Assembly: GCA_000002435.2 (NCBI GenBank)
Contig: CM018792.1
DNA: 64,000 nt
Reading direction: 5' to 3' (one strand)
Origin: Giardia intestinalis
Lineage: Eukaryota
A model generated the notes under the pieces. It was not told the DNA's origin. It was given only the letters and a program-made list of their open reading frames with translations, and ran no database searches. Positions 26,187 through 55,706 of the stretch are shown piece by piece (position 1 is the first letter of the stretch; every line of letters starts with the position of its first letter). Both the position numbers and the translations under genes were made by a program.

Positions 26187-26192
26187 ATGTAC

Positions 26193-26207
26193 ACTTAGGT
26201 AGTAAAT
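26193..26207 (+). terminator. VSP extended polyadenylation signal ACTTAGGTAGTAAAT (consensus ACTYAGRTAGTRAAY).
   Basis: An exact match to the VSP-specific extended poly(A) motif, including the general Giardia AGTRAAY core, lies 7-21 nt after the VSP stop codon. Confidence 0.8.
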
Positions 26208-26446
26208 GCGTCGATGAATTCTGTTTGTAGGTCTGACTCGGAAGTTGCATGAATAACTCAATCTGGCTGTATTAGGAACAGGGACAAACCACAACTAATA
26301 GGTTAAAGATTTTCTTCTTCAGTTTTGAGCTCAATTCCAGGGTGGTCTCTGGATCTCTGAACTTGATACGCTGGCCCCCGGGTTTGACGACAGTACTACC
26401 TCCCGTCTCAAAAAGCATCACAAAGTGGTTTACAATCACCGATCAG

Positions 26447-29180: not shown

Positions 29181-29337
29181 CATTCGTGGAGATTAAATGT
29201 TACTGGCTTAGCTTTAAGGCCTTCACAAAGATCACTAGTCAGTTGCGACCTGGGTATATTGGAGTTGCTAGAGTGGCTTAAAACTTGTGGTCAAAATTAA
29301 TTCCAACATTTTCGCCTCTTGTGGTTTAAATAGGCTA

Positions 29338-34781: not shown

Positions 34782-37700
34782 CTACACATCTGCTATGTTG
34801 ATTACTGGAGGATCCTCGACTGAAGCATCCTCACTTTGAGGGAGCAGTAGCCATGAAAGTGGTATGTATCCTACTTGGATAGAAATGGAAATATAGCCTG
34901 CAGGTGGCTGTATTGTGGACAGTGGACAGGCTTCAGGAAGTGCAACTGCCGTAATATATGCGCTAATAGTGTGGACATATCCTTGCTCTTGCTCTGCTGT
35001 AGCCGAGACAAGAGATTGGATGGAGGAGTCATAAGTGCCTGCGGAAAACACTAGATTAGTAAGTTGCAGACAAATGGGAAAACGATATAGTTCAGTGCAG
35101 CTTCTATGTGCATCGGTATCTGCAAAGGTAAGAACTCCAGAGCTAGTTAGATAAAGCCTCCCGGGCGGGTCGTTGAGAAAAGCGAGGAAACAGACTCTTT
35201 CAGCGGGAACATTCCTATGCAATGCTAGCGACAATTGTAGGATTGATAGTAAGGTTTGTAAGCCATTTTCTTTCTGGACCGAAGAGACCTTCCAAGCCCC
35301 TTCCTCAATCTTACATGCAGGGTCTAGTAGCATCTGGATAAGGGAAGACTGGACAGAACAGACGGGAATATCTCTGCATGAAAGCGAATGCAACATGGAG
35401 TTCTTTGTCGTATTCACGTGCCCATTAAGGATGCTTCGAAACTCTGCTAACTCGCCATACGAGGGGCCTCTCATTGAAGATGGCTCCTCGTTGGCAAGCA
35501 AAGTCTTCAATACGCGATCGAAAATAGACACTATCTTAGAACCTGTCAAGCACTTAATTGGGGCATGAGATGGTAGCTCGAGTGTAAGTAGTGGAGAGAT
35601 AACGCTCTCTATAAGCCTATCTGGAGATATTAGTGCCATGATATCCTTAAGAAGACGAGGGGTATTTTCTGAATCAAGTTTCCCGTCAGTGCCATGGTTT
35701 GCGTTAGAACCTCTCCACTGCTCTTGTGAACATAGCCCCTCTACAACGACTGTATTGGAACTGATAGGGTCTTTTTCCTTCTCCGCCAAACGAAGACTAC
35801 TTTTTCTCCATTTATACTGTACTTGAGACCGACACACTCTGGTCGCAAGCACCTGTTTGCTTCCATGTAGTGGGAGGCTCCCTTTGATGCCCAGAACCTT
35901 GAGCACTATGTAGTATTCAAAGCAGCTTTGTACTGCACATCTGGCTCTATCATTCATGAAGTAGCGCGGATCTCCTGAGCAGAGAAATAAAAACCTATTA
36001 AGACTCCGGGTGAATAGTAGCGCGGGACAAGGGGCTTGATCTGCACCGTGTTGTGCAGTGAATAAGAAGTCAAGATATCGGAGAATCCCCGGTCCAGATT
36101 CGATACCGAGCTGTAGTGTTCTATGGGTGCACGTGTGAAGCAATCCTACAACTAGTAGGTCGAGTTGATGGATTGTCGGTGCTCTGCGGGTCTCTGTTTG
36201 TAAAAAATAATGTGTCAAAGCAGCTTTGTAAAGATCTGATGGCACGGATGGCTGTTTGTATCTAACAATTATGGGTCTGCTTAGATATAATAATTGCTCT
36301 AGTATGTGGCTCAGCCTTGCTCCCATTGCGTCAATTGCCCGGTTAACGGTATGTTGTGGAATGATCAGCCAAACGGGGAATGCTGGCATACCAGTTGTAT
36401 TAAAGTACTGGTGCATGTTAATAAGGCATAAGAGGTTCTCTAATTCGTCAGCTAAGCATGCAGGACTGGATAGTAAACACACTGTAGAATGCCGATGGAA
36501 GTCTGTCCACGACGATGGAAACTGGTAAACAATTGGTACATCCCCAAATGAGTATTGTGTCACATCGCCATAACCACGCCGATCCAGAGCAAATAGTTCG
36601 TCTAAGGAAAACATCTCTCCCTCAGAGAACACTATGGTCAAAGGGAAGTAGCACCTGCAGTGCTCAACTACCTCCTCAATAGCTTCTACTGAAGAACCAC
36701 AAGCATGCGCATCGCAAACTAAGGATGAGACTTGTTGATTGGTGAGATTGTTAGACACTGGTGTCAGCTCGTGACGCTTTGAGACCAGAGTTAGGGTAGA
36801 GTCTATCATGGCATGAGCTGCCCGGAGTAGCGAAACGACTGAGTCACAAATGCACGTTTCTGGAAGCGCTTTGCCTTTCTCATCCACTTGGAGAAAGCCT
36901 GCAGGAAAGGCACAATGCTTCTCTTCATGCGACATGACTGGTAGCCTTGGCCTTTGAGGTTGCTCCGATACGAAGATAGAGGGTTTGTTCGACAGGTTAG
37001 GACCGTGTCCCAATGGAGATGTATATTGTCCCCAAATCTGGAGCAGTAGCGTAGATGCAATTGTAAATGATTCTGGACGCAGTAAAACAGAAAGAAGGAA
37101 GGCGAGATACATACCTTTCATGGTCGGTTTCTGAAATAGTAAGGGCACATAGGTTAAATTTAGGTGCTTCCTGTCCTTTTCTAGTTCTGCGTCCATCAAG
37201 GAAGCAATGCAGTGCTCCAAGTCAGCGCATCGCTTTGCGGCTACAGAAGGGTCTCTATCTAAGAGATGCTCTAGTGAGCTCCTTGCACCGACATCTAATA
37301 GGTACAAAGACACAAGTGTCACTAGTAGACAAGAATACTGAGAGCACACCAAGATTGCAGCTGGATTTTCAGCCAAATACGATAGAAGGTCAACGGAGTC
37401 CTCGCTAAATCGTGAAATAACTACACAAGAAAGGAAGAGTTGCTTAGCTTCCTTCGTAATAGAAAACTGTGAGGGTACAATTTTGTCTAAAGCGTAGTTA
37501 ATACTGGGGTCTGGTAGAGTAGTTGAATGAGACGGCAATGGTGGTGACAGCAGGCAGGTATGGATAAAAGAAGCCATCTCCTCAAGAGACTGAGGACACA
37601 AGCATGTCAGCAACTTGATGTCGATATCATGTGTCTGCTGCGATCCGAAATGAGGCTGTGCGTCCATCAGTAAGCGCAAATCGTTGTGCAAAATAGCCAC

Positions 37701-40700
37701 TTCTAAATCTCCCCTCGATATAGTAGATCTATCATTACAAAGCTCATCTTCTAAGGGCCCTAGTCTTGACAGCGTGCATAGCGTAAGAAACAATTTGTGA
37801 ATGTGAGCGTGGGGAAGTGCTGAGGTTGAAGTTAGACGAGAAAGCATATATCTAAGAATCTGTTGGAGGACAAAGTCTATGAGTATGCGAGGGTAGAGCA
37901 CTATGTAATAAAAGACAGGATACTTTAAGGAATCGTAGCGAAATGTAATCAGGTCTGCTATGAAGTTAGTCTGTAGAAGCGTTGTCGGCTGATCCGCATG
38001 ATCTCGAGAATCACACTGATTGTCGATAGAAGATGCTGTACTAACGGATTTTAGTGGTGAGTGAGCTGAGAAAAACCGCTTTAATTCAGTCTTGATTGTA
38101 CTATTATAGAAGCTCGTTAGTTGACCGCAGAGTGTTCTTTGAAAGGGCGTTAGTGCAGCCCTGTTTGTTTCGATCAATAGTGTAGGGTCCCTTTTAGCCT
38201 GTGTTCGCAAATACCGAAGCAGGTCACACGTCAATGTAGCGCACTCTTCAATCCAGACATGCCATCGAGACCGCAATAGATAACCGAGCTGAATCTCATT
38301 GAGAATATTGACTGATTGGCCCACTGAAAATTGAGACACCTCATCTCCGATCGGATAGGAACTCCTGTTTTGCAGATCCATCAGAGGAAGAGCACGATCT
38401 GCGCCTGGAATAAGTGCATAGAATAATAAGCACACCTCGCGAAGCAGGTCTAATAATATAGAAACTGACGAGGCGGCCTTTGCACCGCTACTATGAGCAC
38501 AAGTGAGCTGCTTGTAGCCACGGTTTGTACTTTGGAAGCTATTTGATCCAGTAGAATAAGCGCTCGAGAAATCAGAAAGCATCACTTCTATCTCTGCTCG
38601 GCGTTGTGTGTACGCTTCTGCTGTCATAATTGTTTTTTCGCTACGGAAGGATTCGTTAATAGGAAAGACCCCAACGCCGTACTCTAAAAGATAGGAGTGG
38701 AATGTGTCGATAAATGTGTTTAATGACAGAGAAAGCTTAGCGAACATAGTACTTCTTCTGTGGAGTATGGACAAGCTAGTAAATTCTGGACCGAATACAG
38801 ATTCCGTTAACATATCTGTGACAGCTGCACACTCTGCTGGCTCTGGGTCGTATCCAGGACAAGGTGAGAGATTACAGAGGAAGATCACAGACCCTAGCAT
38901 GCCTGATCTGTGCATCTCTGCCTGGTGGAGAGCATGTAAAACTGAGACAGGCGTAAGACTGGGGTCGTAATCTGGTGAAAGGCTAATGATGAAAATATAC
39001 TCAGAAAGGGGTTGAAATAAATATGTAATCTGACTACCAAGAGTGATCTGCTGTCGTGCATCAACGCGGGTTGTAGCTGCCAGCAGAAGCAGCTTTCTGA
39101 GAAGAGAGTAGTTATTTTGTGGAACTTGTCGTGCACCCACATCGGAGAACACAATCGCCTTATCAGACTCGGCCAGAGCCTTTGCCACCGATGCACAGAA
39201 TTGTTTATATGGTTGACGGACACTCAGCTCAACCCTTCTTTGCCTGATGTGATGTATGTATGTGTATAATGCCTGATTCGTTGATCTAAGAGAATGAGCA
39301 GGATCTGCCGTATTTGACACTCCGACCAATGCTTCATAGAGACGGCAGAAAGGAGTTTCAAAGCGACGCAGGCTAGCTACCAGCGTGAAGATAAGAGGTG
39401 GAACCAGCACGCTATATGTTAGAAAGATTCGTCGTCCCAAAAGAAGAAATAGCATACCGGCATAAAGAAGATGCCTATAGACTTCGTGATTATTGAGGGT
39501 GTCCCTAAAGAGTATCTCGGCCAGAAAGAGAGGTGTATCCAGACACAGAGAAACCTGGAAGTGTCTAAAGAAGAGATCGGTGGATTGTAGGTCATGCTCA
39601 GTCCAAACTGAGAATAACTTAAGTCTATTAGAAGCCGAAGACGAACTGCTTGAGCGACTCCTTGAACTGGGAAGCATGATGGTTAATCCATCCTGTTGCA
39701 GTGCTTCAATCAGGATTTCTAAGGCAGTTGTGCGTGCGCCATCACTTGTGGGGCGATCTAATAGTCCAGTGACTCCATAAAGCATACAAGCAACCAGAAC
39801 TGGGGCTTCGTAACATACATGTCCTAGTATAGAAGCAAGCAGCTTACTATATCCCTTACACGCCTCCAGACACGAATAAAGGCAATTTCGCATGTAGCAA
39901 AGCTCTCCGAAGACCTTGCTATCATGCGACACCAGATTGCCCACAAAATATTGCAGGTATTTAGACGACATTGATTCTATTGGAAGGATAGAATCTTGCG
40001 CATTATTAAAGCGGGTGACATAAATGTCAGGATACAGAGAGTCGTGGGTCTTTAACCCTTGCAACGGAGCCTCTCTTGTCATGTATGCATACGCCTTGAA
40101 TAGGCTATTGATGCTATTGACATTGGCATAATATTGCTGTGCACGTGAGAAGATCATCCCAATGGCATCAACCGTAAGCTTGATATACGCCTGGAGGGGG
40201 ACCTGCCAATTGTGAGAAGAACGAGAGCACGCCCTGTGAAGTGAGAGACAGGATAGAAGTACTGCCACCTTGTGTGCTTCCCAGTTTATGCTCAGTTGTT
40301 CTGGGAGATTAGCGACCTTGGACAGCTGACAGGCGTTAACCTTACAGTGAATAAGCAGCTGTTCGGCCGTATACTTTGCTACAGGAAATAAGGGATTGAG
40401 GGAAATGGTGTGCACACTAGGAAAATCAATCTTTGTAGACCTGATAGAAAACTTTGAGAGCACATCAAAGAACATAGCTAAGGAGCCATCAAATGTATCA
40501 TCAGGAGACCGCAGGAGCTTCTTTATGCCAAAATTCCTAATGTCTAGAGGATGTGACATTGTGGCTAGACAGTCAATCGAGCCGTTATGCAATACATATA
40601 TTTTAAGATTGGAGGCTAGAATGGAATGTAGTTCTTCTGCCTTGAGATGCCTTCCAAGGCCAGCATTGAGTGACAGGGATGCAAGAATGATAGAAAGCTC

Positions 40701-43700
40701 TTCGGAAGTGAACAGTGCCCTAACAAGATTGCCTGGAGTGATCGTTGTCTGAAGGAGACAGCTCAGGGCGGGCCATCCGGTGGCTGCGCTCATGAGGATA
40801 TCCATTGAGGAAAGGATAGTAACGCAAGAGGGCTCTATGAGGTACTTTTTCATAAGAGACTCTCCTTGCTCCAGCAGGCCCTTCATTCCGCCACCTTGTT
40901 CAAAACGATGAGCGAACTCAGACATTGTGCCGCAATTCTTATTGAATGTGTGCATAACATAATGCTCCAAGTGACCTGGAACAGAAAGTATAGACGGCAA
41001 ATGAGTGTGCAGCAGCGGCTCATCAGTGTACATGCAAGTGAAGGCGGCCCCACTAGAAACCCCAGAATCAAAGTACTTTGTACTGGGAGTGCGCAGAAGA
41101 CTTTCTGCAAGCGGGGCCAGCAATCCAAATTGACTGATGCTGTGGGCAGTTGTATGATTGATAGTATACAAAAAGTAAATCGGGTTAACACCTGCAGCAA
41201 GACAAACTGCGGTTCTCAGTAGCATAAGAGTAGCGAGAAAGTCAGAATCAAAACTAGATAGATACGCAGAAAGTTCCAGCACAGCTATTGACAGATTCTT
41301 CACAAAGCTCTCCGCCGTGCGGTTAGAGGGCTTGTCAGTGCTCTTCTCCTTTTCGCCTGCAGACACATGACTAACTGAGGCTACGATCGTGTCAATGTCA
41401 ACAAGAACACGATCATTCAGTCGGCCTCGACAATCCTTGGCAGAGCCTCCGCATACTGGTGAGCCCTTGGTTCTAGAGGAAAGCAGTTGATCGGATGCAA
41501 GTGAAAGCGCAGGGGTATCATTAGAATAATTACTTAAGTAAAGGTGTTCAAGCTTCAGATCTAAAAATGATGTGTAGCCCTCCAATGCTTGGAGCAGATA
41601 TGAAATTTGTTGAAAGTGCTTGTAGTCAGCAAATGGTGTGTATAGTCTATAGCAGGGAATAGTGATTATAGAAGTAGACAAGTTAATAGGCAGTAGCGGA
41701 GTTGTGGGCCATTGAACAGGAAGATAGTTGTGAGGTAGAATGACAGACGACGAGGCAGGCTGCAAACTGAAGGAGTCCTTGAGGTCCGATAGCCTGAGGT
41801 CCAAAGAGACCCCAAAATTAGACGGCCTTTGTGGCTCTTTGCTCATTGGAGGTTCTTTTTCAGTAAGAGCAAGAGATAATAGGCATGGTGAATCAGTATG
41901 CAGTGAAAGCAGCTCGTCGATGATATGGTCAGTGGCTTCATCGGAAAAGCTTCCAGAAGTGGTATGGGCTTGTATGACTCTGTATGCATCAATGTACTTT
42001 CCAGAAGATTCTGTGGGCCAGTCACGCATAGAATTCAGTATCAGCCTGCTCAGCTTTGCTGGTGACATCAGCATGCCCCACAAAAAGAGCTTCCACAAGC
42101 ATGAATACAAGTTATGGGTGGGGTGAATGCATGGAAGAGGAGAACGTAAATACTCTTGAAGACACGATATAACTTTCACAATATGCTCTCCCATGGCTTT
42201 TGATTCTGTGTGCATTTCAAAGACACGGAGAGCCAGAGATGGGCTTATGTACCGTGGGGTATCTGGTGGAGGGATATGTCTCATCTTTGCCTCGGCAAGC
42301 TGGCGATCGTACGCCACATGTTCAAGATATAGGTCAGCTGTGAAGAGCTCAAAGTAACGAGGGAACCTTTGAAGCCAGTCTAAGTTGATATTAATGCATC
42401 CACATGCGCAGCCGACCTCCAGTGGATTGACCTTGAATTGCGAATAGATCTTAGATGATAGAGGGGCTGCTGAATCAAATCTTTTAGTATCCTCTCGACG
42501 AGGAAGAGACTCAACTGAATTAACCAAAGAATTATCATCTTGACTGACTTTCTGAAAGAGGATGCCGATCAAGTAACATAGTCCATCTGGTATCCCGGCG
42601 ACAGCAGCACTGCAAGTATTGTAGAAGGCTCTTAAATCATGCATCTCTGTAGTTAGTTCTTTAGCTCTGGGTACTTGTGAAGGCTTGCTCTCATCATTGT
42701 TCTCTGATTGGCCTGTAGTTGGTGGCTGACCATCGTCTTGTTCCAATGCTCTACGATCTTCTTTATTGTGCGCTTGCAAATAGGTCTCAATCACATCAAC
42801 TTGCCACTGCGGTGCTAACGCTTGCAGGCTGCATATGTTGAGCGCTCGAGCACCAATAGCAGGAAGTAACCCGTCCAGAATGGATACCAATTTGGCATTG
42901 GACATACTAGGAACATTCCGAAGGGCAGCAGCAAGAGCACATACGGTGCAGTGCGCATAAGCTTCCCTAATAACAAAGGCTTCAGTCTCTAGAGCCGAAG
43001 AAGAAGGCAGCTGAGGAAACCAGAATAGACAGCGCTGTAGATCAGCGAGAAAATCATAATTAGAAAAAAGGTCTGGGTAGCTAGAGAATAAAAATGATAC
43101 GGCTTTGTTCAGCATCTCATAGCAAATGCTTCTATTTGAGGAAAATGCTAATTGGACCAAGGATAGAACGTGGTCTAGGGTTAATTGTGGTAATGATACG
43201 GTGATTTTGTCTATTGTTTCTTTACATGAATGAGTAGACAAGCGAGTGTCGTGTCGTCTTTCAACTATCAACGTGGTATTCATAAGGCTGAACTCTCCAA
43301 CAATGTGAGACCCGTCTCCAAGTGTCCTTTGCCTAGGAGGTGCCGAAGCTGACAGCTGTGCTAGTTGGGAGAAAAGTGAATCCCGGTCATCCTGTTTAGA
43401 AGTGTTTGGTACGTGTAGCACGCCAGCAGACCATCTGGATAACTTATTCAGAAAAAGGGCAGCTGTGCCCTGCTTATCGTAATAAGAATGAAATGCATTA
43501 CAGATCTCACCAGCAGAAGCAGTAGCAGTCTCGGTGAGACGGGCCCACGGACCAAAGGTGTCTTGCATCAAAAGTTCAGCTATCTCAATCAGTGATGTCT
43601 TGCCCATACTTTCATCTCCGCAAACCTCTAGAAACACACCCGAAGGGTAGAGCATCGCTGAGGTGGAACATGCAGCAATAAGCACCACTATTGCGGTGCG

Positions 43701-46700
43701 AGGCTCATCAATAAATAATGTAGGAGACAGTGGTTTTTGGATGGAAAATTGATAGCAGCTAGGAATGCCATATGAATAAGCTATTGTACTGAGCACGAGA
43801 TCGTCGCGCAGCTTTGCCAATCTTGCCTGATGATCAGTCGCATTATCTTTGAAGTTGTCAGAGCACAACTTCTTGTATTGGTCTTTTATGTCCCCCTTTT
43901 TCAGCTCGTATAGTATTGCCCCGTCAAGTGAAATGTTGTCCAAAATCTGAGTCTGCGAGGCACACGACAAAGTTGAGAGTATTCCCTGCCCTATCTTGTA
44001 GCTCAGGTATGAAAATGTAATGCGCTGGCATCCAGGGTCCTTGTTCTCGAGAGATGGCACGACATAAGCAAACACCTCTGAAAGGCCGGGGCTTGATGAG
44101 CTTACAAACTTACCTATAAGGTTCTGGAGCGATCCATGGATAGAGGACGCTGCAGAGGCAAAGGCCAATGCACAATCAGATGCCGTAACGTTGAGGGTAG
44201 TCCATATGGAATCTCGTAGACAGAAACGTTTGGTAGCAACTACTTTGCTGATGTACTCACTAAGAAGTATATGCTTATCCCGCTGTTCATATGTCATAGT
44301 AGCCATTGGTGTATTGATACCCTTCTCCCACAAATCCAACAGGACGGTTATGTGCAAAGCTGAAAGGAGATAGCCTGATAGAGTGTAATGTCCAGCGGCA
44401 GAGGGACTGGCATTGCGATCTGGCGCATTAAGTTCAAACCCAAAGAGTGTGAGAAGCCGGCAAATAGATGCACGAAACGTTTGACTAATCTCAGAAAGAG
44501 GTCCTGGCGAACTAATATCAGACATTCTGCTAATCAAGTACGTCAAGGAGTATGCGTTCCATGCTGCAAAGAAGATGAACATGAGAAGATGTACAAGACC
44601 CAAGGTCGCATTAGGGGAGACATGGAAAAGAGACTGGATTGTCTCCTCACAGAACTTAAGGGTACTTATGTTTGATGCATCAGATATCCAGTGAGTGCCA
44701 TTAATGAACTGAGAAAATAAATCCGATTTAGGTGGGATCGACTTTTTGTCCAACCCCTGAAACTCGGGAAAGTACGCATACTTCGAAGGATTGGGGCTAC
44801 TAGGGGCTTTTTGAAAGGCTGTGAGTTCTCCTGAAAGATAAGCATCATAACTGTCCGGGGAAAAGTAGAGGGGGAAAGTATCTAAGTCATTAGAAGACCT
44901 CTTCTCATTGGTAGGGTTTGCAGAGAACTCTCTGCCAGGAACACAATCGCTGCGCTGCACAAGCTTAAATTGAATAAGGTTATACCAGATCAGACTAGCC
45001 ATGACCTTGGTCGGAGCGACAGAAAGGAGCTTATGCTCACCTCCAAAGACAAGGGTAAACTCCTTCCTCACCACTTCAACTATGCCCTGAAGACAGAACG
45101 GAAAAATGATCCGGATGAACAGGCTATAAACTCTTTGGATCACGTAATCGGTTATTCGCGTAAATGAATACACAGAACGCTCTGCAATCCACGCGCTTGT
45201 AATATGAGAGACGCTTGGGAGCGGAACAATAAACGATGGATCACTGTCGGAGAGCAACAGAGACACCTCCCGTTGCAGATTCATCCCACATGCCGACGGA
45301 TTCAGCAGAAGAGATGGATAGAAGGAAGTAGCGCTGTGGCTTGCATCCTGTGATAAGCATAGACTACTAGGTGGTATCTCCCTATCCATATTCCTGTGAG
45401 GTAATATCGGAGACAGTAAAAATTCCATCTCGTGGGGAATAGAACGAGGTACGATTGGTAGAATGAACTGCCTCTTATATACGTAAGTGATCGCCGGCAA
45501 GTGTTGCTGATAAAACGAATTGGACACTACTATAAGTACTGGGGTAATGTCAGAGAGATCGAACATTGCAGCTGAGATGGAGTGAAGATCGGACAGAGCT
45601 CGTACTTGGTAAACAATGAGGCTCTGCACACACAAGTCTGCATGTCGACCCAGTAACCGCTGGACTTCAGCATGGTCTGTTGTGCGGATAGCTGTCAACC
45701 CCTTCATATCACAGACCAGCTGAGCAACTTCACATGCAAATTCATACGAGCAGGACACCATCAGAATAGGGGAAATACTAATCTCAAGCATTTGCGAAAT
45801 TGTAACAGCAGTATAGATAAGCGTGAAGGACTGATTGTACTTGATCATGAGGAAGGAGAGACGGTTCTTATAGCATTGAGTAAAGAAAGGATAGAAATAC
45901 TGAACAGTATATCTATAGAACAGTGAATCGCTAATACCATTGATTTGTAGTGACAAGTATGCCTCTATGGCGTTGGTAAGGATGTCAGAATCTGCCTTAG
46001 GCAACATGAAGCTAGTCACTAAAGCAGTTCTGACCGACCAGAGTGTGTTCCGAAGAGCACTCGCATCCTTATTGTCTAACGGCACACGGGTCAGTAGGTA
46101 GTGCAATGCCGAGAGCGCTACAGATGTAGGAGAGTCTGAAGCAGATCTAGAGAGTATCATCAACTCGTCTACCTCACCGATAATGAAAGAGCTAATCTGT
46201 GCAAGACGCACTGAAGCAATCGAAAGAGCTGACAAACGACCAACCGGAGCAATCCACTTGACATCGAGAACGCTGGATAGGACCGTCATAGAACTATGAC
46301 TAATAATGTCGTATGCACTATAGAATGAAAAGTAAATCAGCTCTGGGGCATATATGTTGTCTAGAATAGATTTTGCATGCTTATCCACACACAACGGATG
46401 CCCGAACTGATCAATAAGTGGGGCAGGCGTCTCACTTGTCGGACATTGTGAAGAGGCTATCTTGGCACCTGCGCTACCTAAGTCCGCAGGTAGTAAGCAG
46501 TGCATAAATATCACAATCTTACCCATTCCATGGGGCTGAGGCAGCACGTCAGAGACACAAGCATCACGAATAGTGACGTAGGTGCCCAGGAAGCTGCCCT
46601 GGTCGTCAATAGTCATAGATGACCACTTGTTTCCAAATTCAAGACTTTCTATGGTTGCCCGAGCCTTCGCAGAGATGGGCGAGACCACAGCTAGGCCAGG

Positions 46701-49700: not shown

Positions 49701-52700
49701 TGTCTGAAGCAGCTCATCAGTTGAAACTAGTGCACCACGCCATCTCTCCAATAGCGTTTCAAGGGAAAGTAATTCAACACTGACGTAATATAATACCGAT
49801 AGAAAGTGTGCTACTGAAAGCTGATTGGATAATGAATCGTGTTGTGGTTGATGGAGAGATTGGGCCGACTTGAGTCGGAACGGAATTATGCTGTCGTTCA
49901 TAACGAAGGTCTTCAACATAGCATCTTCATGACAAATACTTTGAAGCAATATGGGCGTATCCAGATCAGGAGAAGGAAGATTCAGAAGCGAAGTTGCGCC
50001 GAATATGCTATTGAAAAATGCCAGATCGGCATCAGAATCCGCTGGGAGACCGTCTATTGTCTTAGATCGATATATAGGTGGCACAGTGAACATCTTCATT
50101 ACAGTGAAATGATCTTCATATGAAGATAGAGAGACCTTCTCACAGCCCTCAGCATCGGGAATAGTCAAGGAAGAAACGGTGATAATCTGATCAAGAAGCA
50201 TCCTGGAGGCAGTCTCCAGCCAATCTTCAGTGATAGCTGTGAGCTCCAGAAACCGTGCTCGTCGCTGCTTGAAGATTGCAACTGCCATAGCTTGCTTCTC
50301 CTTGAGAGACAGGATACGTTGTAACAGTGAGAATGCCGAGTCTTCCAGCTCATCCACAGTGAAGACTGATCGAGTGTCAAGGAAGCGTGCGCACAAGCTC
50401 TCGTATTGCACGATGGAAGCATCATATATAAACGAGTACAGCTCATGTAGCTTAATCCCAGCAAGCTGATCTAGCAAGTTCTGCTGTGCAAGAATACTGT
50501 CAGGGCTGTCTATAGGCCTTTGCAAATCTCTTTCGAGACTCTCCAGCTCACAAGATAGTGTCTTTGTGATCAGAATAAGAGAGGCATACTGTATGTATAA
50601 ATAAAGATAGCGATAGTAGGTTAGGAGGGATGCCATGCTTTTCTTAAGCTCGTGAAGTGAGATGGCAAAAATGGTCTGATAGACATTGGCAGGGAGAACG
50701 TGGAATCCATTGCCATATAGCGAAATTCCATCCAGCGTTTTGTCGATTACTGAAAAGTCTAGCTGCGGGATTAGTTTATGAAACTGTGGGTGCAGAAGGC
50801 TATATTTGGTTAAATTACTGGACACATCAGGGTCCTGAATACTAAGAAAACTTCTTGCTGATAGAAACGGGCAATCTGGAGGATTCGGATCAACCTGTCC
50901 CTGTCCCTGTACGTGTGCACGCAGTATGTGAGAACTGCCAAACTCTGAATATAGCGATGTTTCGGGATCATAAAGAGAGATGTTTCCGACGTCTTTTCCG
51001 TAGGTTGAAATGTAAGCATACACGTTCTTCATAGAACTAGTTGTAAGCGCACTCTGAATTGCGCTATAGCAACTCCCAATCATAAGCTCATCCATCACCA
51101 TGTCGATGACAAGGCGGGCAGTGGATGCAATGCTCTCAAACCTGTCATTGACCATGCGGTGGTCCAGGATGTTATGGTCAGTAATGTGCAGAAAGCTGCA
51201 ATAACCGAAGTTCTCAAACGCTGTGCCAGTCATAAGTGAAAACTGCGAAGAATCCAAGTACAGTTCTTGGAGGCTGGTTCCTGCCAAAAAGGTGTCCTTA
51301 AAGGTAAGGGGTTTTGGCAAGGCCAATGCTTCTTGTGTGGAAAGCAGCGTAGAAAGTGACGATGACTCAGTTAACGTGTTCCAGAGACGCAGAAACTCAA
51401 CAGCTTCTCCTTCTAAGTTGCTGGAGGGAAAGATCCCCATGTTACAAAAATGCTTGAGAGCGTCGAGCTGCCTGTCCGTAACAGTCAATTTTCCTGCGCT
51501 CCGTGTTGATTTGCGTGTGGAAGAAAATCTGGAGGAGCAGGAGCCCTTAGCCGAAGCCACCTCATCTTGAAAAGTATCTGAGTAGAAATCTATTAGCGAA
51601 AGAGACAATGCGCTTGTGTTCTTGTTTGGTGAAGCCGGGTTCTCTAACTGGAGCTTTATATTGAGGGTAGTTGGAAAGAAGTAGTCGAAATAGAGGGAGA
51701 CCATGATTGGTAGAGTGAAGAAAATGGTTGAAAGGTCTAGTGCAAGATTCCATAAAGGTACCAAAGAGCGCTCAACCTGCGGCACGTAGCTAATCAGCAG
51801 CGAAGAAACCAGATCGGATGTCAAGGCAGGATCCATAACGTCTGCCAAAGAGTGTGGCTGAGAGTAAACTACTATGAGCTGGTGATCAGAAGCATCACAG
51901 TTTGAAGAAAAATAGTACCCATTAAGGCGATTCTCTTCAAGAAGGCTCTCCAGATCGTCTGTTAGTGCCGTTACTTCTTCAGATTGTTTAGACTCAACAA
52001 GAGATTGAGTGGAATGCTGCACTAATTTAAGGTCTTCTTCTGAGAGAATCTTGCTAGCATCATTCATTTTCCAAATAACTTGCTGCAGTTCATAGTCTAG
52101 TGGAATTTTGACGCTCTTCAGACGCTCGGCGTAGTCTGCGTCTAGCACAGCGAGAGATGCATACAGCTGTGCATTATCGGCCTTTGCAGTCAAGTAGAGA
52201 TCATCAATGGTGAGAGATTTGTTCCTAGTAAGCTGATCGCTGTCTCGCTCGATAGCTAGCCTCATTGTCTTCTGCTTCTGCTTGTGGATATCCTCTCGCT
52301 GGCTCCTTATTCTGCAAACAGAGTCTTCCAACTGCTGTATGGAGTGAAAGTAGTAGCCATATAATGTCCTTGCTTTCGGAGAAACAATGTCCACACTACA
52401 ACGACGCAGGTGACGCGTAAACGTTATAGTCAGATTTAGCGTAACCCGATAGAGAACTCCTGGAAAGTCGAGGCTTGATGGGGAAAACCCAAGGTGGTAC
52501 AAGCGGCGCAAAATCACCCGTGCAGCAGATGGAAAGGCGAGATTGTCGTGCATGTCAGTATTACTAGTAGCTATGCAGACACCTCCCCGGGGGGCTGTAA
52601 CACACAGATCCTCTTCTGAGTCCGCAAACTCAGACTCGCTATTGTGACTAGAATCACTATTACTGCCAGACAAGCCAGAAATTCCCAAAACGTCCTTTTC

Positions 52701-55700
52701 ACCATGGTCTATTTTTGCGGCTAAAGTCCTCCGTCCACGCTTGAGGCGTTTAATTGCTCTGCGCTCCAGTAGATGTCGCTGATCAGAGACGTCGGTGTTG
52801 GCAATAATAGTACTGGTGAAGAGGCTTGTGAAATCCAAGAGAAGTGGATACATTGCAGCCGAAAGGTGTCTTGCAGCAATCAGGAAGGTATCTGGAAGAG
52901 TTCGAAATGGACAGGATAGCACGATACGTAGTTGTTGCTGCAAACCTACGCGTGATGGGTTGTAACTTAGTCTAGCATAATCCTTTTTTACAATTAGTCC
53001 AAACACGTCCTCCATGCGGGGGGCTTGACACTCTAACGGGAAGCCCGACTCAGCCAACTTCTGTAAATGGGGAATTGCCATATATTGATGCTTTATGCAG
53101 GCTTCAACATAATCGTCATAGGAATCCGTAGGTCTCGGGGTAGGAAGTAAGATCTGTCGAATCAGTTCGTTAGTCACGGTTAAATTACGGCCCGCCTGAC
53201 GTGTATTAGCGCGAGATACAGCTCTTGAAGCGGTCTCTCCTCTATGGCGAATAGCCGAACTATAGTCTTCTTCAGAGTAATAGTGCTTCTGAAATTCTAA
53301 ATTAATCAAGTAGCTTATTGTACGATAGTAACATTTCCCAGCGATAATTGTAAGCTGAAAGGGTACTATGCTTCGCCAATAAAGAAAGAAGAGGGACTTA
53401 ATGCATAAAAGCTGATCTGTGTGCTCGTGAAGGAGGATTTTAACGATGAGATTTGCCGCCAGTACAAGCTTATCTAGTACCTTAGTGTAATTATAGCTAC
53501 GTAAGTGAAGAGCGCTCTTGAGGTATGTGCTTGCCAGTTCTGACAATAAGCCCCGGTCCTCTGGGCAAACGTTTCCAAGTCGTGTCTGGAACGCATCACC
53601 TTCTGTGTTACAGTCACAAACACATTGCAGGTGTAAGCCAGAAAGGTCGGAAACATCTGTTCTTAGCTGCAGGAGAAGCTTTTGTAGCATTGACGCAATC
53701 GCGGAAAACTCGCTGTTGAAGAAATAGTTGGTCAGTTGGCCTGTTCTGGAACAAATGTCCTGCAGAGCAGGTAAAGCAGTGGACCGATAAGTACAGCCCC
53801 AGGTTACACAGTTTCTTAGGGCAGTAACGGCCTTAAAACGGGCTATCAGGCTTGATTGTCGATCCAAGACAGACATGAGAATGGGTTGATAGCGATCCTT
53901 TAAGGCACTGGAGAAGTGGTCGAGACTGTCCGATGCATTCAGCTCATCTCTAATACAAGTCAAAGAGTATCTCGAATAGTAAGAATGCAGCGAGACAGGA
54001 GCATATCGCAGTAGGCCAAGAACATTCAACTGAGTAGATATCTGTAGGCGCCGATCCTCTGGCATCGTGAGCCAGTTATCCCCTACAGACAAGAGAGTAG
54101 AAAGACTTATTTTCTGAACCCCTGCAAGGTGCTTGTTGTGGACCGCAGTAAGATGGAGTTTATATTCATGCAAATAATCCACTTGCAATTGCCTCAAGCG
54201 CTCGGGGAAGATGCCCATGGCTTGCGCCACAGAGTTAATGCGCCTCAACGTTCTGAAGAAAACGGGGTGTTGCAAATATCCAGTGTCCAAGGTGATATCG
54301 TACGAAGAATCAGCCTTGGAAATTTCCCAGTTGCAAATTGTATAGAAATTCTCCTGGGGCTCAGGGATAATGGTCTTAACAAAATCATTAGCGAGGGCAT
54401 TGGAGAGCTCGGATTCAACAACGTCCTTTGCTGAGAAAAGCTCGTCGATGGAGCATTCGGAATCAGTTACAATTGGGATGCTTGATAGCCTTTGAGGAAG
54501 AGAACTGGCTCTACACTGCCTTCTAGACTTCAAACTAGAGTGAAACATGTTCCTGGCACGCTTCTCGATCGTTGTGCGTTGAAGAGTGAAGTCATCCATT
54601 ATGCTTCCAAGCGTCTTGTCCTGGCCACAGCTGAGGGATAGATCATGTAAAGCCGTCACACTCCCTGATAGTGCAGATGTCTGAGGAGTCATATTAGACA
54701 AGGCTTGCCTAGCGTTCATTAAGTGCCGATCGTGATATGGAGAGGTGTTCCTGTTAATTCCATGAAGATTGACACTAGAGGAGTGGAGCAGGGCTTCTCT
54801 GAACTGAGGGGAAGCACGAGAAGAGGAATCTAAAAGGGGGTTCCGTATGACCTCCATACTTTGTCTAGTAAACGGATTGGTGACCGTAAAAAGTGCCTCA
54901 TTGATGCTGGAAGGCATCAGAAAAGGGTTAGCGCCATAATCAACAGGGTATTCTTCTTCTAATAGACGCATGCTTGGAAGTAGGGTCAGACGAGACACGG
55001 GAACACTATATGTTTCCCTATGAAGAACTAAGTCAGACTTTTGCAATCTGGCTTTGTAGAATGCCAATTCATCAGGTAGATCCAACAAGCTCGTCTCTGG
55101 AATTGTCGTTGCACTATTTGATTTGGCAACAAGATGTACATCCACACTCGCTCTATTGAGCCGCAGATCTAGTGACTCCAATGTTCCCACAAGAAACTTT
55201 ACACTCATCTGCGAAGTGATGCTCTCGCGCATTTCTGAGCAGTGTGCATGCATTGTCGACCTCGCTGGTGCTGCTGGCACATACAAGGACAGCGAATTGA
55301 CTGTCGGGGTGTCCAGGTTATGAATTAGAACGAGCTGAGCATCACATCCGTTATTATCATAAGCAGAAGGCAGAGATGGAAGGCAAACCTGCAGACCTAC
55401 ATCAATTTCCTTCAGCTCTTGGCAACGAGCAAACGCAGTGCGACGCCCATCAGGGCTAGCGGATAAAGCTGCAAAGTTACTAGATAGGATCCCCGAGGAT
55501 CCTGACTCTCTGTTAGACAGGTTGTTGGACCCTAACAAAAGTGGCCGTGGTCGAGTCGACGCATGGTGTGTTGATAAATGGGCCCTGAGCGGAGCGGATG
55601 GACTCTTAAGTGAAGATGTAGAAAAGTCTTTGGTTAACCGTATCGGAGCCATTGATGGGCCTCCGTGAAAAGTAAGATGCTTTAAAAATCGGACTTTTTT

Positions 55701-55706
55701 GTTCAT
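34782..55706 (-). CDS. Giant hypothetical protein, 6,974 aa (a 20.9-kb single exon).
   Basis: The reverse-strand ORF is uninterrupted from ATG 55704-55706 to the stop at 34782-34784. Codon usage matches its neighbours. The only motif I could recognise is a single Walker-A-like VFLEVCGDESMGKTSLIEIAELL, encoded at plus-strand 43596-43619. A second in-frame ATG at 55652 (M19) would leave a 52-bp AT-rich promoter shared with the divergent E2 gene. Confidence 0.8.
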   Translation of the reverse strand: MNKKVRFLKHLTFHGGPSMAPIRLTKDFSTSSLKSPSAPLRAHLSTHHASTRPRPLLLGSNNLSNRESGSSGILSSNFAALSASPDGRRTAFARCQELKEIDVGLQVCLPSLPSAYDNNGCDAQLVLIHNLDTPTVNSLSLYVPAAPARSTMHAHCSEMRESITSQMSVKFLVGTLESLDLRLNRASVDVHLVAKSNSATTIPETSLLDLPDELAFYKARLQKSDLVLHRETYSVPVSRLTLLPSMRLLEEEYPVDYGANPFLMPSSINEALFTVTNPFTRQSMEVIRNPLLDSSSRASPQFREALLHSSSVNLHGINRNTSPYHDRHLMNARQALSNMTPQTSALSGSVTALHDLSLSCGQDKTLGSIMDDFTLQRTTIEKRARNMFHSSLKSRRQCRASSLPQRLSSIPIVTDSECSIDELFSAKDVVESELSNALANDFVKTIIPEPQENFYTICNWEISKADSSYDITLDTGYLQHPVFFRTLRRINSVAQAMGIFPERLRQLQVDYLHEYKLHLTAVHNKHLAGVQKISLSTLLSVGDNWLTMPEDRRLQISTQLNVLGLLRYAPVSLHSYYSRYSLTCIRDELNASDSLDHFSSALKDRYQPILMSVLDRQSSLIARFKAVTALRNCVTWGCTYRSTALPALQDICSRTGQLTNYFFNSEFSAIASMLQKLLLQLRTDVSDLSGLHLQCVCDCNTEGDAFQTRLGNVCPEDRGLLSELASTYLKSALHLRSYNYTKVLDKLVLAANLIVKILLHEHTDQLLCIKSLFFLYWRSIVPFQLTIIAGKCYYRTISYLINLEFQKHYYSEEDYSSAIRHRGETASRAVSRANTRQAGRNLTVTNELIRQILLPTPRPTDSYDDYVEACIKHQYMAIPHLQKLAESGFPLECQAPRMEDVFGLIVKKDYARLSYNPSRVGLQQQLRIVLSCPFRTLPDTFLIAARHLSAAMYPLLLDFTSLFTSTIIANTDVSDQRHLLERRAIKRLKRGRRTLAAKIDHGEKDVLGISGLSGSNSDSSHNSESEFADSEEDLCVTAPRGGVCIATSNTDMHDNLAFPSAARVILRRLYHLGFSPSSLDFPGVLYRVTLNLTITFTRHLRRCSVDIVSPKARTLYGYYFHSIQQLEDSVCRIRSQREDIHKQKQKTMRLAIERDSDQLTRNKSLTIDDLYLTAKADNAQLYASLAVLDADYAERLKSVKIPLDYELQQVIWKMNDASKILSEEDLKLVQHSTQSLVESKQSEEVTALTDDLESLLEENRLNGYYFSSNCDASDHQLIVVYSQPHSLADVMDPALTSDLVSSLLISYVPQVERSLVPLWNLALDLSTIFFTLPIMVSLYFDYFFPTTLNIKLQLENPASPNKNTSALSLSLIDFYSDTFQDEVASAKGSCSSRFSSTRKSTRSAGKLTVTDRQLDALKHFCNMGIFPSSNLEGEAVEFLRLWNTLTESSSLSTLLSTQEALALPKPLTFKDTFLAGTSLQELYLDSSQFSLMTGTAFENFGYCSFLHITDHNILDHRMVNDRFESIASTARLVIDMVMDELMIGSCYSAIQSALTTSSMKNVYAYISTYGKDVGNISLYDPETSLYSEFGSSHILRAHVQGQGQVDPNPPDCPFLSARSFLSIQDPDVSSNLTKYSLLHPQFHKLIPQLDFSVIDKTLDGISLYGNGFHVLPANVYQTIFAISLHELKKSMASLLTYYRYLYLYIQYASLILITKTLSCELESLERDLQRPIDSPDSILAQQNLLDQLAGIKLHELYSFIYDASIVQYESLCARFLDTRSVFTVDELEDSAFSLLQRILSLKEKQAMAVAIFKQRRARFLELTAITEDWLETASRMLLDQIITVSSLTIPDAEGCEKVSLSSYEDHFTVMKMFTVPPIYRSKTIDGLPADSDADLAFFNSIFGATSLLNLPSPDLDTPILLQSICHEDAMLKTFVMNDSIIPFRLKSAQSLHQPQHDSLSNQLSVAHFLSVLYYVSVELLSLETLLERWRGALVSTDELLQTRGFLSSAPSLQQLHLCIQVFYTATVYPIQLNTFLQEAGSWDLSMLLPFIPRLYSVLDSTLNAVQVLSLWTQPLVDNMQHITELYMNSFAQGSTLLRSWEPRHECYGFSGGGFSILARTGSMLAKVIPSGWRRYLLLVQSSLQHIANDIVCLDLLGAPFFTTFHKKEIQSYLHIPDSPPVDDILVAIHSTACASEFLAYLYIKAQADSHAIAELEEAEKLLGGVLISAIDHIQLDSPPGYTNPRSQNSYSSDLSRCPIPLVRFVPEASSLQLSKSESILTSVAAGPRHHHDKIPVAEVGTLKGAILSVVQSLDCLPLPLLPYSSLLLCTTYSDAVHRRIQDLRAALRATTILYHSLCYVPRLFRYALTMYGYASFIEASVINRGVRSMADHPTLLYSVNVLTMQEATTLFNIYGQYSSLINSKLSTGTPLVCCATSAPVYKLVGSVLKDLDTIVHRLITAPHLFLFSKLLSSNQQPPKAPKSVAQRGTLLLTEYQPKFSPTISLGGHDTMQLKHLVPYLNGSHHFMSLLFPLWAPGSHVFIPNIKDLSICTRWVRSHAFPGITSLTAPFFPNGKQQITELVSHSETLSLVQPVRCPTQLYSLPDILFKPISSALLRCTSQVLTGLLKIVAAMDRLPLQQTLDLLSLACLASVPSCKSDLAFELHTIINSVVVIVNSAVYDALCVAISTTLKILLEDQLRCMAPEDFVEKFKNQRPILQRTYLFLHIILFTFKVRADAKSQCHDPLVLMSNKACKDSPRVKYNASYGDALNIWIIERYMLLLMLEHDLWVELRREQARHKAATAHLLKAISDDKTLAHTHAAYLSANKTFEFAGAHMDDYLRCTIYPMIFLQFTTNDSNTQSIDITLSNDMTSFETSAHWIGAPQAEDLYCVLPPQLQISMLRVLESFRRTNIVFLLLDKIPQLDCCSFPRFILRRLSRLMLCQSTLLFMTPTTFEKDIVHLMIRLAAGLLVGIVGFELLETEQQILMTHILKELQCPTGLIPGLAVVSPISAKARATIESLEFGNKWSSMTIDDQGSFLGTYVTIRDACVSDVLPQPHGMGKIVIFMHCLLPADLGSAGAKIASSQCPTSETPAPLIDQFGHPLCVDKHAKSILDNIYAPELIYFSFYSAYDIISHSSMTVLSSVLDVKWIAPVGRLSALSIASVRLAQISSFIIGEVDELMILSRSASDSPTSVALSALHYLLTRVPLDNKDASALRNTLWSVRTALVTSFMLPKADSDILTNAIEAYLSLQINGISDSLFYRYTVQYFYPFFTQCYKNRLSFLMIKYNQSFTLIYTAVTISQMLEISISPILMVSCSYEFACEVAQLVCDMKGLTAIRTTDHAEVQRLLGRHADLCVQSLIVYQVRALSDLHSISAAMFDLSDITPVLIVVSNSFYQQHLPAITYVYKRQFILPIVPRSIPHEMEFLLSPILPHRNMDREIPPSSLCLSQDASHSATSFYPSLLLNPSACGMNLQREVSLLLSDSDPSFIVPLPSVSHITSAWIAERSVYSFTRITDYVIQRVYSLFIRIIFPFCLQGIVEVVRKEFTLVFGGEHKLLSVAPTKVMASLIWYNLIQFKLVQRSDCVPGREFSANPTNEKRSSNDLDTFPLYFSPDSYDAYLSGELTAFQKAPSSPNPSKYAYFPEFQGLDKKSIPPKSDLFSQFINGTHWISDASNISTLKFCEETIQSLFHVSPNATLGLVHLLMFIFFAAWNAYSLTYLISRMSDISSPGPLSEISQTFRASICRLLTLFGFELNAPDRNASPSAAGHYTLSGYLLSALHITVLLDLWEKGINTPMATMTYEQRDKHILLSEYISKVVATKRFCLRDSIWTTLNVTASDCALAFASAASSIHGSLQNLIGKFVSSSSPGLSEVFAYVVPSLENKDPGCQRITFSYLSYKIGQGILSTLSCASQTQILDNISLDGAILYELKKGDIKDQYKKLCSDNFKDNATDHQARLAKLRDDLVLSTIAYSYGIPSCYQFSIQKPLSPTLFIDEPRTAIVVLIAACSTSAMLYPSGVFLEVCGDESMGKTSLIEIAELLMQDTFGPWARLTETATASAGEICNAFHSYYDKQGTAALFLNKLSRWSAGVLHVPNTSKQDDRDSLFSQLAQLSASAPPRQRTLGDGSHIVGEFSLMNTTLIVERRHDTRLSTHSCKETIDKITVSLPQLTLDHVLSLVQLAFSSNRSICYEMLNKAVSFLFSSYPDLFSNYDFLADLQRCLFWFPQLPSSSALETEAFVIREAYAHCTVCALAAALRNVPSMSNAKLVSILDGLLPAIGARALNICSLQALAPQWQVDVIETYLQAHNKEDRRALEQDDGQPPTTGQSENNDESKPSQVPRAKELTTEMHDLRAFYNTCSAAVAGIPDGLCYLIGILFQKVSQDDNSLVNSVESLPRREDTKRFDSAAPLSSKIYSQFKVNPLEVGCACGCININLDWLQRFPRYFELFTADLYLEHVAYDRQLAEAKMRHIPPPDTPRYISPSLALRVFEMHTESKAMGEHIVKVISCLQEYLRSPLPCIHPTHNLYSCLWKLFLWGMLMSPAKLSRLILNSMRDWPTESSGKYIDAYRVIQAHTTSGSFSDEATDHIIDELLSLHTDSPCLLSLALTEKEPPMSKEPQRPSNFGVSLDLRLSDLKDSFSLQPASSSVILPHNYLPVQWPTTPLLPINLSTSIITIPCYRLYTPFADYKHFQQISYLLQALEGYTSFLDLKLEHLYLSNYSNDTPALSLASDQLLSSRTKGSPVCGGSAKDCRGRLNDRVLVDIDTIVASVSHVSAGEKEKSTDKPSNRTAESFVKNLSIAVLELSAYLSSFDSDFLATLMLLRTAVCLAAGVNPIYFLYTINHTTAHSISQFGLLAPLAESLLRTPSTKYFDSGVSSGAAFTCMYTDEPLLHTHLPSILSVPGHLEHYVMHTFNKNCGTMSEFAHRFEQGGGMKGLLEQGESLMKKYLIEPSCVTILSSMDILMSAATGWPALSCLLQTTITPGNLVRALFTSEELSIILASLSLNAGLGRHLKAEELHSILASNLKIYVLHNGSIDCLATMSHPLDIRNFGIKKLLRSPDDTFDGSLAMFFDVLSKFSIRSTKIDFPSVHTISLNPLFPVAKYTAEQLLIHCKVNACQLSKVANLPEQLSINWEAHKVAVLLSCLSLHRACSRSSHNWQVPLQAYIKLTVDAIGMIFSRAQQYYANVNSINSLFKAYAYMTREAPLQGLKTHDSLYPDIYVTRFNNAQDSILPIESMSSKYLQYFVGNLVSHDSKVFGELCYMRNCLYSCLEACKGYSKLLASILGHVCYEAPVLVACMLYGVTGLLDRPTSDGARTTALEILIEALQQDGLTIMLPSSRSRSSSSSSASNRLKLFSVWTEHDLQSTDLFFRHFQVSLCLDTPLFLAEILFRDTLNNHEVYRHLLYAGMLFLLLGRRIFLTYSVLVPPLIFTLVASLRRFETPFCRLYEALVGVSNTADPAHSLRSTNQALYTYIHHIRQRRVELSVRQPYKQFCASVAKALAESDKAIVFSDVGARQVPQNNYSLLRKLLLLAATTRVDARQQITLGSQITYLFQPLSEYIFIISLSPDYDPSLTPVSVLHALHQAEMHRSGMLGSVIFLCNLSPCPGYDPEPAECAAVTDMLTESVFGPEFTSLSILHRRSTMFAKLSLSLNTFIDTFHSYLLEYGVGVFPINESFRSEKTIMTAEAYTQRRAEIEVMLSDFSSAYSTGSNSFQSTNRGYKQLTCAHSSGAKAASSVSILLDLLREVCLLFYALIPGADRALPLMDLQNRSSYPIGDEVSQFSVGQSVNILNEIQLGYLLRSRWHVWIEECATLTCDLLRYLRTQAKRDPTLLIETNRAALTPFQRTLCGQLTSFYNSTIKTELKRFFSAHSPLKSVSTASSIDNQCDSRDHADQPTTLLQTNFIADLITFRYDSLKYPVFYYIVLYPRILIDFVLQQILRYMLSRLTSTSALPHAHIHKLFLTLCTLSRLGPLEDELCNDRSTISRGDLEVAILHNDLRLLMDAQPHFGSQQTHDIDIKLLTCLCPQSLEEMASFIHTCLLSPPLPSHSTTLPDPSINYALDKIVPSQFSITKEAKQLFLSCVVISRFSEDSVDLLSYLAENPAAILVCSQYSCLLVTLVSLYLLDVGARSSLEHLLDRDPSVAAKRCADLEHCIASLMDAELEKDRKHLNLTYVPLLFQKPTMKGMYLAFLLSVLLRPESFTIASTLLLQIWGQYTSPLGHGPNLSNKPSIFVSEQPQRPRLPVMSHEEKHCAFPAGFLQVDEKGKALPETCICDSVVSLLRAAHAMIDSTLTLVSKRHELTPVSNNLTNQQVSSLVCDAHACGSSVEAIEEVVEHCRCYFPLTIVFSEGEMFSLDELFALDRRGYGDVTQYSFGDVPIVYQFPSSWTDFHRHSTVCLLSSPACLADELENLLCLINMHQYFNTTGMPAFPVWLIIPQHTVNRAIDAMGARLSHILEQLLYLSRPIIVRYKQPSVPSDLYKAALTHYFLQTETRRAPTIHQLDLLVVGLLHTCTHRTLQLGIESGPGILRYLDFLFTAQHGADQAPCPALLFTRSLNRFLFLCSGDPRYFMNDRARCAVQSCFEYYIVLKVLGIKGSLPLHGSKQVLATRVCRSQVQYKWRKSSLRLAEKEKDPISSNTVVVEGLCSQEQWRGSNANHGTDGKLDSENTPRLLKDIMALISPDRLIESVISPLLTLELPSHAPIKCLTGSKIVSIFDRVLKTLLANEEPSSMRGPSYGELAEFRSILNGHVNTTKNSMLHSLSCRDIPVCSVQSSLIQMLLDPACKIEEGAWKVSSVQKENGLQTLLSILQLSLALHRNVPAERVCFLAFLNDPPGRLYLTSSGVLTFADTDAHRSCTELYRFPICLQLTNLVFSAGTYDSSIQSLVSATAEQEQGYVHTISAYITAVALPEACPLSTIQPPAGYISISIQVGYIPLSWLLLPQSEDASVEDPPVINIADV
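55653..55704. promoter_or_regulatory. Candidate bidirectional promoter (an AT-rich 52 bp) between the giant gene and the E2 gene, if the giant gene starts at M19. Otherwise this is its first 18 codons.
   Basis: The plus-strand sequence is ccgtgaaaagtaagatgctttaaaaatcggacttttttgttc. On the minus strand it encodes MNKKVRFLKHLTFHGGPS but looks compositionally like a promoter. The E2 ATG at 55705 and the annotated giant-gene ATG at 55706 overlap inside a CATG. Confidence 0.35.

Follow-up and report, generated by a model that had tools for sequence, protein, structure and literature searches.

A giant single-exon gene of Giardia intestinalis encodes a lineage-restricted protein with one conserved P-loop and, possibly, a degenerate AAA+-type module

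The locus

We analysed a giant open reading frame (ORF) and its surroundings in a 64,000-nucleotide stretch of the Giardia intestinalis genome (contig CM018792.1), the whole of which is referred to below as the window. The window is packed with long intronless ORFs, and an exact-sequence look-up of 10 of its proteins returned records of G. intestinalis WB (assemblage A) for 9, including a pyruvate kinase, a metal-dependent hydrolase, an XPD-type helicase and a 17-kDa ubiquitin-conjugating enzyme (E2-17 kDa). The giant ORF runs uninterrupted on the minus strand (34782..55706; 6974 codons, ATG start, zero ambiguous bases), as an earlier note on this DNA had described, and an ORF of such length cannot be a chance product. 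The features at and upstream of its 5' end are as follows.

34782..55652, minus strand: coding sequence GL50803_0060603, 6956 aa from Met19 of the ORF, stop codon at 34782-34784 (public annotation and assemblage conservation)
55653..55706, minus strand: in-frame upstream extension MNKKVRFLKHLTFHGGPS, 18 codons, yielding the 6974-aa 'longest ORF'
55653..55704, no strand: divergent intergenic spacer, 52 nt from the conserved ATG of the giant gene to the E2 ATG
55681-55689, no strand: A/T-rich element TTTAAAAAT within the 52-nt spacer
55694-55700, no strand: T-run within the 52-nt spacer
55705..56184, plus strand: Rad6/UBE2A-type ubiquitin-conjugating enzyme (E2-17 kDa), 159 aa, Pfam UQ_con 1e-42, exact match to KAE8303644.1

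Taken from Met19, the protein (6956 aa) matches KAE8303643.1, XP_037901934.1 and A0A644F4T4 exactly, and GL50803_0060603 carries the public label 'hypothetical protein'; exact look-up of the 6974-aa version gave no match. The 6,956-aa protein has a predicted mass of ~770 kDa (by arithmetic). The giant protein contains 14% Leu and 11% Ser, and a single strongly hydrophobic stretch of 22 aa. A literature search by gene ID and UniProt accession found no paper on GL50803_0060603. The locus is a single gene without introns, which public databases already list as encoding a protein of unknown function.

On its 3' side the giant gene converges with a gene for a CXC-rich/GLUG-motif protein (29335..34755, plus strand; 1806 aa, with an apparent N-terminal signal peptide), the two stop codons lying 26 nt apart. 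Searches recovered orthologues of this neighbor from G. intestinalis assemblages alone (98%, 87% and 76% identity).

Translation start, divergent spacer and the neighboring E2

The first ATG of the ORF (55706-55704) overlaps the E2 ATG (55705-55707) as CATG, and the earlier note had read this as a zero-length divergent promoter. The apparent overlap arises because the longest ORF was taken. The E2 neighbor was used to retrieve the loci of assemblage B (GS, GS_B, BAH15c1 and one Logan contig) and of assemblage E (P15), and in every one the orthologue starts at a Met homologous to WB Met19. The gene models of assemblages B and E do not include the upstream extension, and the upstream ATG of P15 meets a stop after five codons. 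In assemblage A the extension stays open; the DHA2 record is annotated at 6974 aa and the current WB record at Met19. The 18-codon extension is thus probably not translated. The conserved start leaves a spacer of 52 nt in A, ~55 nt in E and ~70 nt in B, in which an alignment of A, E and B (two isolates of B) shows that a TTTT(T)AAAAA element and the T-run are kept, so that the promoter is short rather than of zero length.

The assignment of the divergent neighbor to the Rad6 type stands: beside the UQ_con match to the UBC fold, its 17 best PDB matches are all Rad6/UBC2/UBE2A/B proteins (1e-44 to 2e-37), with the next E2 class at 4e-28. UBR-type ligases pair with Rad6, and it had been speculated that the giant protein has an enzymatic partnership with this E2, acting as a giant E3 ligase or substrate adaptor. 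The head-to-head layout with a genuine Rad6/UBE2A-type E2 is kept in assemblages A, B and E, and the giant protein shares its size class and a large, apparently helical scaffold with UBR4 and RNF213. However, RING, HECT, RBR, UBR and U-box domains gave no Pfam match, and the 6974 aa contain no Cys/His cluster of the form C-x2-C...[CH]. Short divergent spacers and bidirectional promoters are, moreover, generic in Giardia, whose very compact genome typically has short, A/T-rich promoters that act inherently in both directions (PMC1885649); the layout is therefore ordinary, and adjacency alone says little. The head-to-head arrangement reflects an ordinary short bidirectional Giardia promoter and not a demonstrated partnership with the E2; nothing but adjacency speaks for an E3 or adaptor function, which we consider very improbable.

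Conservation across assemblages and in distant relatives

The same single ORF is present in four G. intestinalis lineages in independent assemblies. It is intact in those of assemblages A, B and E, where the called genes span 6955-6995 aa, and a 6955/6956-aa product is also carried by many independent Logan contigs. The B and E orthologues were assembled from anchors on the E2 side and the CXC-rich/GLUG side, with a ~1-kb gap mid-gene in each. Their amino-acid identity to WB is 61% (B) and 79% (E), and only two indels, of 11 aa each, separate the assemblages. The ratio of nonsynonymous to synonymous substitution rates (dN/dS, Nei-Gojobori, A vs E) lies at 0.09-0.48 in all 200-codon windows that had data; the two halves of the gene give 0.17 and 0.25. 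The giant protein diverges faster than its neighbors: A-B identity is 61%, against 76% for the CXC-rich protein, and the E2 exceeds 90% across A, B and E.

An exhaustive phmmer scan with aa 3981-5180 against 1.84e9 representatives recovered five proteins, namely P0106, P0110 and three short fragments, all but P0110 being of Giardia type. P0110 (7705 aa, E=2e-12) comes from a 40-kb Logan contig and is the sole member of its 90% cluster. Nine BLAST segments align it colinearly to aa 110-6923 of the WB protein, a global alignment gives 22.9% identity, and we regard it as an orthologue over the full length, from a distant relative that is plausibly a further species of Giardia. Its richness in Ala and Arg hints at a source genome of high GC content. 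P0106 (6990 aa, also from a Logan contig) is richer in Asn, Ile and Lys and is 56-57% identical to A, B and E alike; by these identities it is a fourth lineage of the G. intestinalis complex, possibly one of its more divergent assemblages. No further relatives came out of two metagenome scans, one based on a profile and the other on the island FFTLPIxVSL[YH]F. A word-indexed search (1500-aa tile; three-lineage profile) returned nothing, the known relatives included, and was therefore taken to be unable to detect such giants. Within the reach of HMMER, the protein family is confined to Giardia and one related GC-rich lineage.

The best-conserved stretches of the protein are aa 400-600, 1200-1800 and 4800-5600, and two blocks stand out in the comparison with P0110.

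53298..55379, minus strand: N-terminal conserved block, aa 110-803, strongest match to P0110 (blastp 2e-20 over 760 columns)
40089..41420, minus strand: C-terminal conserved block, aa 4763-5206, blastp vs P0110 2e-19, best stretch of the exhaustive HMMER match

The C-terminal block and aa 5200-5600 have the lowest dN/dS of the C-terminal half (0.11-0.15), with A-B identity of 0.64-0.73. A profile of the N-terminal block found nothing in the PDB.

These comparisons bear on whether the ORF could be an artefact of misassembly or of the chance fusion of several genes. In the 2007 record the flanking genes are separated by seven accessions, and the giant protein now carries a newer XP number, from which it appears that an older annotation may have split the interval into several entries. 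Against an artefact stand the same ORF in the independent assemblies and Logan contigs, the colinear 7705-aa orthologue, and purifying selection along the whole length. The intact ORF in many assemblies, the few indels and the low dN/dS therefore rule out an assembly artefact or chance fusion, an explanation with a negligible chance of being right that is effectively refuted already, and the giant is one single-exon gene, as had been claimed.

A single P-loop and a second conserved motif

The region around aa 4030 contains the following features.

43560..43718, minus strand: conservation island, aa 3997-4049, LF[IM]D-x2-R-[TA]-A ... strand ... G-x4-GK[ST]-x-LI-[ED] ... D
43596..43619, minus strand: Walker A motif (P-loop) GDESMGKT, aa 4030-4037, sole [AG]x4GK[ST] match in the giant protein
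43260..43283, minus strand: MNTTLIVE motif, aa 4142-4149, consensus M-[ND]-T-[TS]-h-I-h-E, candidate Walker-B-like strand
42777..43718, minus strand: putative nucleotide-binding module and helical 'lid', aa ~3997-4310

GDESMGKT is preceded by GVFLEV and lies exactly where the earlier note had placed it; the 23-aa string quoted there corresponds to aa 4024-4046 (nt 43569-43637). The homologous site in five lineages reads GDESMGKT, GERSVGKT, GNKSTGKT, GNKGIGKT and GSPCSGKS, so that the invariant-type positions G, G, K and S/T are kept in all five while every x position drifts. This position-specific conservation argues that the P-loop is real and not a chance match, in agreement with its earlier reading as a Walker-A-like P-loop. 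The surrounding island is conserved as well: in the window aa 3997-4036, WB and P0110 are 45% identical, against a mean of 20%, which places it third among ~6,900 windows of 40 aa (99th percentile).

Stray Walker A matches occur in single lineages at non-homologous sites (GDAPPGKT at aa 4980 of P0110; AHHRWGKS in the C-terminal part of BAH15c1). They fit the chance rate of ~0.17 per protein, and only the motif at aa 4030 is positionally conserved.

A second motif, MNTTLIVE, lies ~110 residues downstream of the P-loop and was selected automatically as the most conserved peptide of aa 3990-5250. Its M, T, I and E are invariant in the five lineages, and a predicted beta-strand ends in the invariant Glu. 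T-L-I-V-E (aa 4145-4149) resembles a minimal Walker B (hhhE) and is a candidate for that role; it has three hydrophobic residues only, and the canonical Asp is missing. Of the Walker B sought downstream of the P-loop, the canonical hhhhDE form was thus not found and a conserved strand with an invariant Glu was. R4091 and R4125 are likewise invariant.

A GTPase reading of the region, with DKQG as G3 and NKLS as G4, was rejected, the residues being unconserved and the spacing wrong.

Structure prediction

AF2 models were built from alignments 3-4 sequences deep. The P-loop tile (aa 3940-4330) reached a mean predicted local distance difference test score (pLDDT) of 47.9 and a predicted template modeling score (pTM) of 0.42. 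Its elements follow in the order helix, strand, P-loop, helix, helix, 4-5 short strands with helices between them, and helical bundle, with pLDDT of 30-55 in the alpha/beta core and 60-83 in the bundle. This order is compatible with an alpha/beta core, here of low confidence, and a helical lid.

A Foldseek search of the tile against the PDB returned nothing below E=1. Among the top 60 targets listed, every one of more than 1,500 residues is a dynein or a midasin; since no other giant helical class appears among these 60, target size alone cannot explain the ranking. A C-terminal tile, whose model served as a control of equally poor quality (pLDDT 32), gave no dynein, midasin or MoxR matches. 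The models thus offer a weak, specific pointer to an AAA+-type module of the dynein/MoxR clade.

Repeated AAA-like modules at aa ~3310, 4030, 5510 and 6410 were picked out by eye, those other than the one at aa 4030 as degenerate units of strand, pseudo-P-loop and helix; they found no support and are leads at most. Self-BLAST found no internal repeats in the giant protein, and hhalign of the four putative modules against the whole five-lineage profile gave E-values of at least 0.36.

A possible nucleotide-binding module and its alternatives

We tentatively propose, as a possibility that falls somewhat short of an even chance, that the protein contains a very degenerate ASCE/AAA+-type nucleotide-binding module inside a giant lineage-restricted scaffold. 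With moderate to low confidence, the models place the nearest shape of the putative module in the dynein/midasin/MoxR/McrB clade. We infer its fold, its nucleotide binding and its mechanical role as follows. Translation from the conserved Met19 would yield the 6,956-aa protein, the bulk of which would form a non-repetitive, largely helical scaffold. Within the module (aa 3997-4310), a beta-strand would lead into the Walker A loop (G-x4-G-K-T) and a helix, followed ~110 residues on by the conserved strand ending in the invariant Glu (T-L-I-V-E) and then by the helical bundle. The module may bind ATP, possibly with slow hydrolysis, and perhaps with little of it because the Walker B Asp is missing; nucleotide binding might then switch or remodel the giant scaffold.

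An NTPase module of the STAND/AAA type embedded in a giant scaffold had been suggested before. The conserved P-loop and the weak structural AAA+ signal speak for such a module. No sequence family supports it, STAND included: NACHT, NB-ARC and AAA_16 were negative in Pfam, and a hhhhD-[GA]-x-DE Walker B was likewise not found. AAA, AAA_5 and related family models had no Pfam match at E<=1, and the PDB profiles were negative.

Several results weigh against the proposed module. Pfam found nothing at E<=1 on either half of the WB protein, in line with the earlier statement that no domain is recognisable apart from the P-loop, and gave only noise on tiles of WB, P0106 and P0110, including the C-terminal tiles at E<=10. 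Searches of all PDB sequences, dyneins included, by phmmer and with three- to four-lineage profiles found nothing at E<=10 (queries covering ~aa 19-3420 and 3561-6974, plus N-terminal, P-loop, mid and C-terminal tiles). At least one Walker A match appeared in 15.6% of composition-preserving shuffles, so that the motif alone has a ~16% chance of arising. The third of the protein that contains the P-loop (aa 3600-4800) is the least conserved, the conservation island itself excepted. No canonical hhhhD/E Walker B lies within 250 aa of the P-loop, and a candidate at aa ~4083-4089 (AALFLNK) was rejected, being deleted in P0106. Without internal repeats or repeated modules, there is also no sign of a six-module ring.

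The chief alternative is that the protein serves as a passive structural scaffold specific to this lineage, perhaps in the cytoskeleton or flagella; the conserved G-x4-GK[ST] loop would then be a structural or phosphate-contacting turn without a nucleotide-dependent function, or a relic site in which nucleotide is bound only as a structural cofactor. It is favored by the failure of every sequence method to detect family-level homology, by the missing canonical Walker B, by the fast evolution relative to the CXC-rich neighbor and the E2, and by the low core pLDDT together with the lack of a Foldseek match below E=1. We rate this explanation as rather unlikely, while treating it as a serious competitor.

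A more specific alternative is that the protein is an extremely derived 'ghost' dynein heavy chain (DHC), whose P-loop would be what is left of AAA1, followed by ~2,900 aa of degenerate motor and preceded by an expanded tail of 4,000 aa at the N terminus. The attraction of this reading is that Giardia reportedly has no cytoplasmic dynein-1 and that dyneins of aberrant or orphan type occur, also in diplomonads (PMC5100056). Such ghost or orphan chains (human DNHD1; diplomonad DHCs, Kollmar 2016, PMC5100056) are giant, aberrant and fast-evolving, with degenerate nucleotide sites, and one diplomonad orphan DHC has a tail that is unalignable to known classes (PMC5100056). They keep sequence-recognisable motor domains, through which Kollmar's orphans were found, whereas the giant Giardia protein has none in five lineages. 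None of the dynein Pfam families (DHC_N1/N2, AAA_5-9, Dynein_C and others) turned up in any lineage, and relaxing the threshold to E<=10 on the C-terminal tile changed nothing. The stalk/microtubule-binding domain and MIDAS/VWA likewise had no Pfam match, a coiled-coil stalk not having been specifically searched for. The profiles missed every PDB dynein, similarity between the putative modules was undetectable, and the C-terminal model had no dynein match. The motif-by-motif parallels with dynein were drawn by eye and may be pareidolia. We therefore consider a derived dynein improbable.

Other giant proteins offer partial parallels to the proposed module and scaffold. RNF213, with a dynein-like AAA core and few active P-loops, can be likened to the giant protein. 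VPS13/BLTP, BEACH proteins, PIKK/Tra1 and midasin share its size and single-chain architecture; unlike them, it has no chorein, BEACH, FAT/PIKK or MIDAS/VWA domain by Pfam. Full-length Pfam searches for chorein/RBG, BEACH and FAT-kinase-FATC domains were negative, so that the earlier observation of no dynein, BEACH or PIKK signature holds at the level of sequence, and chorein was equally undetected. Identity with midasin was rejected. Garbarino and Gibbons are said to have reported in 2002 that Giardia has a midasin gene of its own. Midasin is a separately studied AAA protein conserved across eukaryotes (PMC3017767; PMC5100056).

Among highly diverged protists, giant orphan proteins are no rarity, and as a gene the finding is fairly ordinary. 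What is new here is the validation of the gene model over its whole length, the corrected translation start and promoter spacer, the setting aside of the Rad6/E3 idea, the single P-loop as a deep conservation island paired with a second conserved acidic motif, and the weak structural hint of the dynein/MoxR clade. If the AAA+ pointer holds, the protein would be a ~770-kDa nucleotide-dependent Giardia machine unseen by homology methods, and would bear on Giardia's unusual cytoskeleton, its missing cytoplasmic dynein-1 and the limits of AAA+ motor divergence. It is a long shot, as improbable as the derived dynein itself, that the protein is the first known member of a family of giant, single-P-loop, AAA+-derived mechanoenzymes of the Giardia lineage, an extreme 'ghost dynein' beyond sequence recognition. 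If true, it might supply motor or remodeling activity in an organism reported to be without cytoplasmic dynein-1 (PMC5100056). K4036, E4149 and the fragment aa ~3950-4330 are offered as concrete targets for testing the proposed module.

Other features of the window

A gene for a HEAT/TPR protein resembling dynein axonemal assembly factor 5 (DNAAF5) lies at a distance of ~17 kb from the giant gene (14367..17438, plus strand); it is of note solely for the dynein lead, with no link shown between the two. At the edge of the window, a large ORF (23..7000, plus strand; 2325 aa to the window edge) has a C-terminal HATPase_c (GHKL ATPase) match of 2e-5, just under the Pfam gathering score, as its only recognisable feature.

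A variant-specific surface protein (VSP) gene (23547..26186, plus strand; Pfam VSP 4e-139) sits between the XPD-type helicase and pyruvate kinase genes, in a stretch that is GC-rich (0.56-0.585) and strongly AT-skewed. A 578-aa ORF antisense inside it (24558..26294, minus strand) has no Pfam match and is probably a by-product of VSP composition, not a gene. A VSP occupies the syntenic site in assemblage E (P15; L008:4591-6810), and assemblage B has ~760 bp there (L007:6348-7110). The presence in A and E, with only ~760 bp in B, therefore points to a lineage-specific VSP insertion or loss.

The eIF4E-like gene (11757..12599, plus strand) differs in its annotated start, giving 280 aa in the old WB, P15 and DHA2 records and 268 aa in the current WB record.

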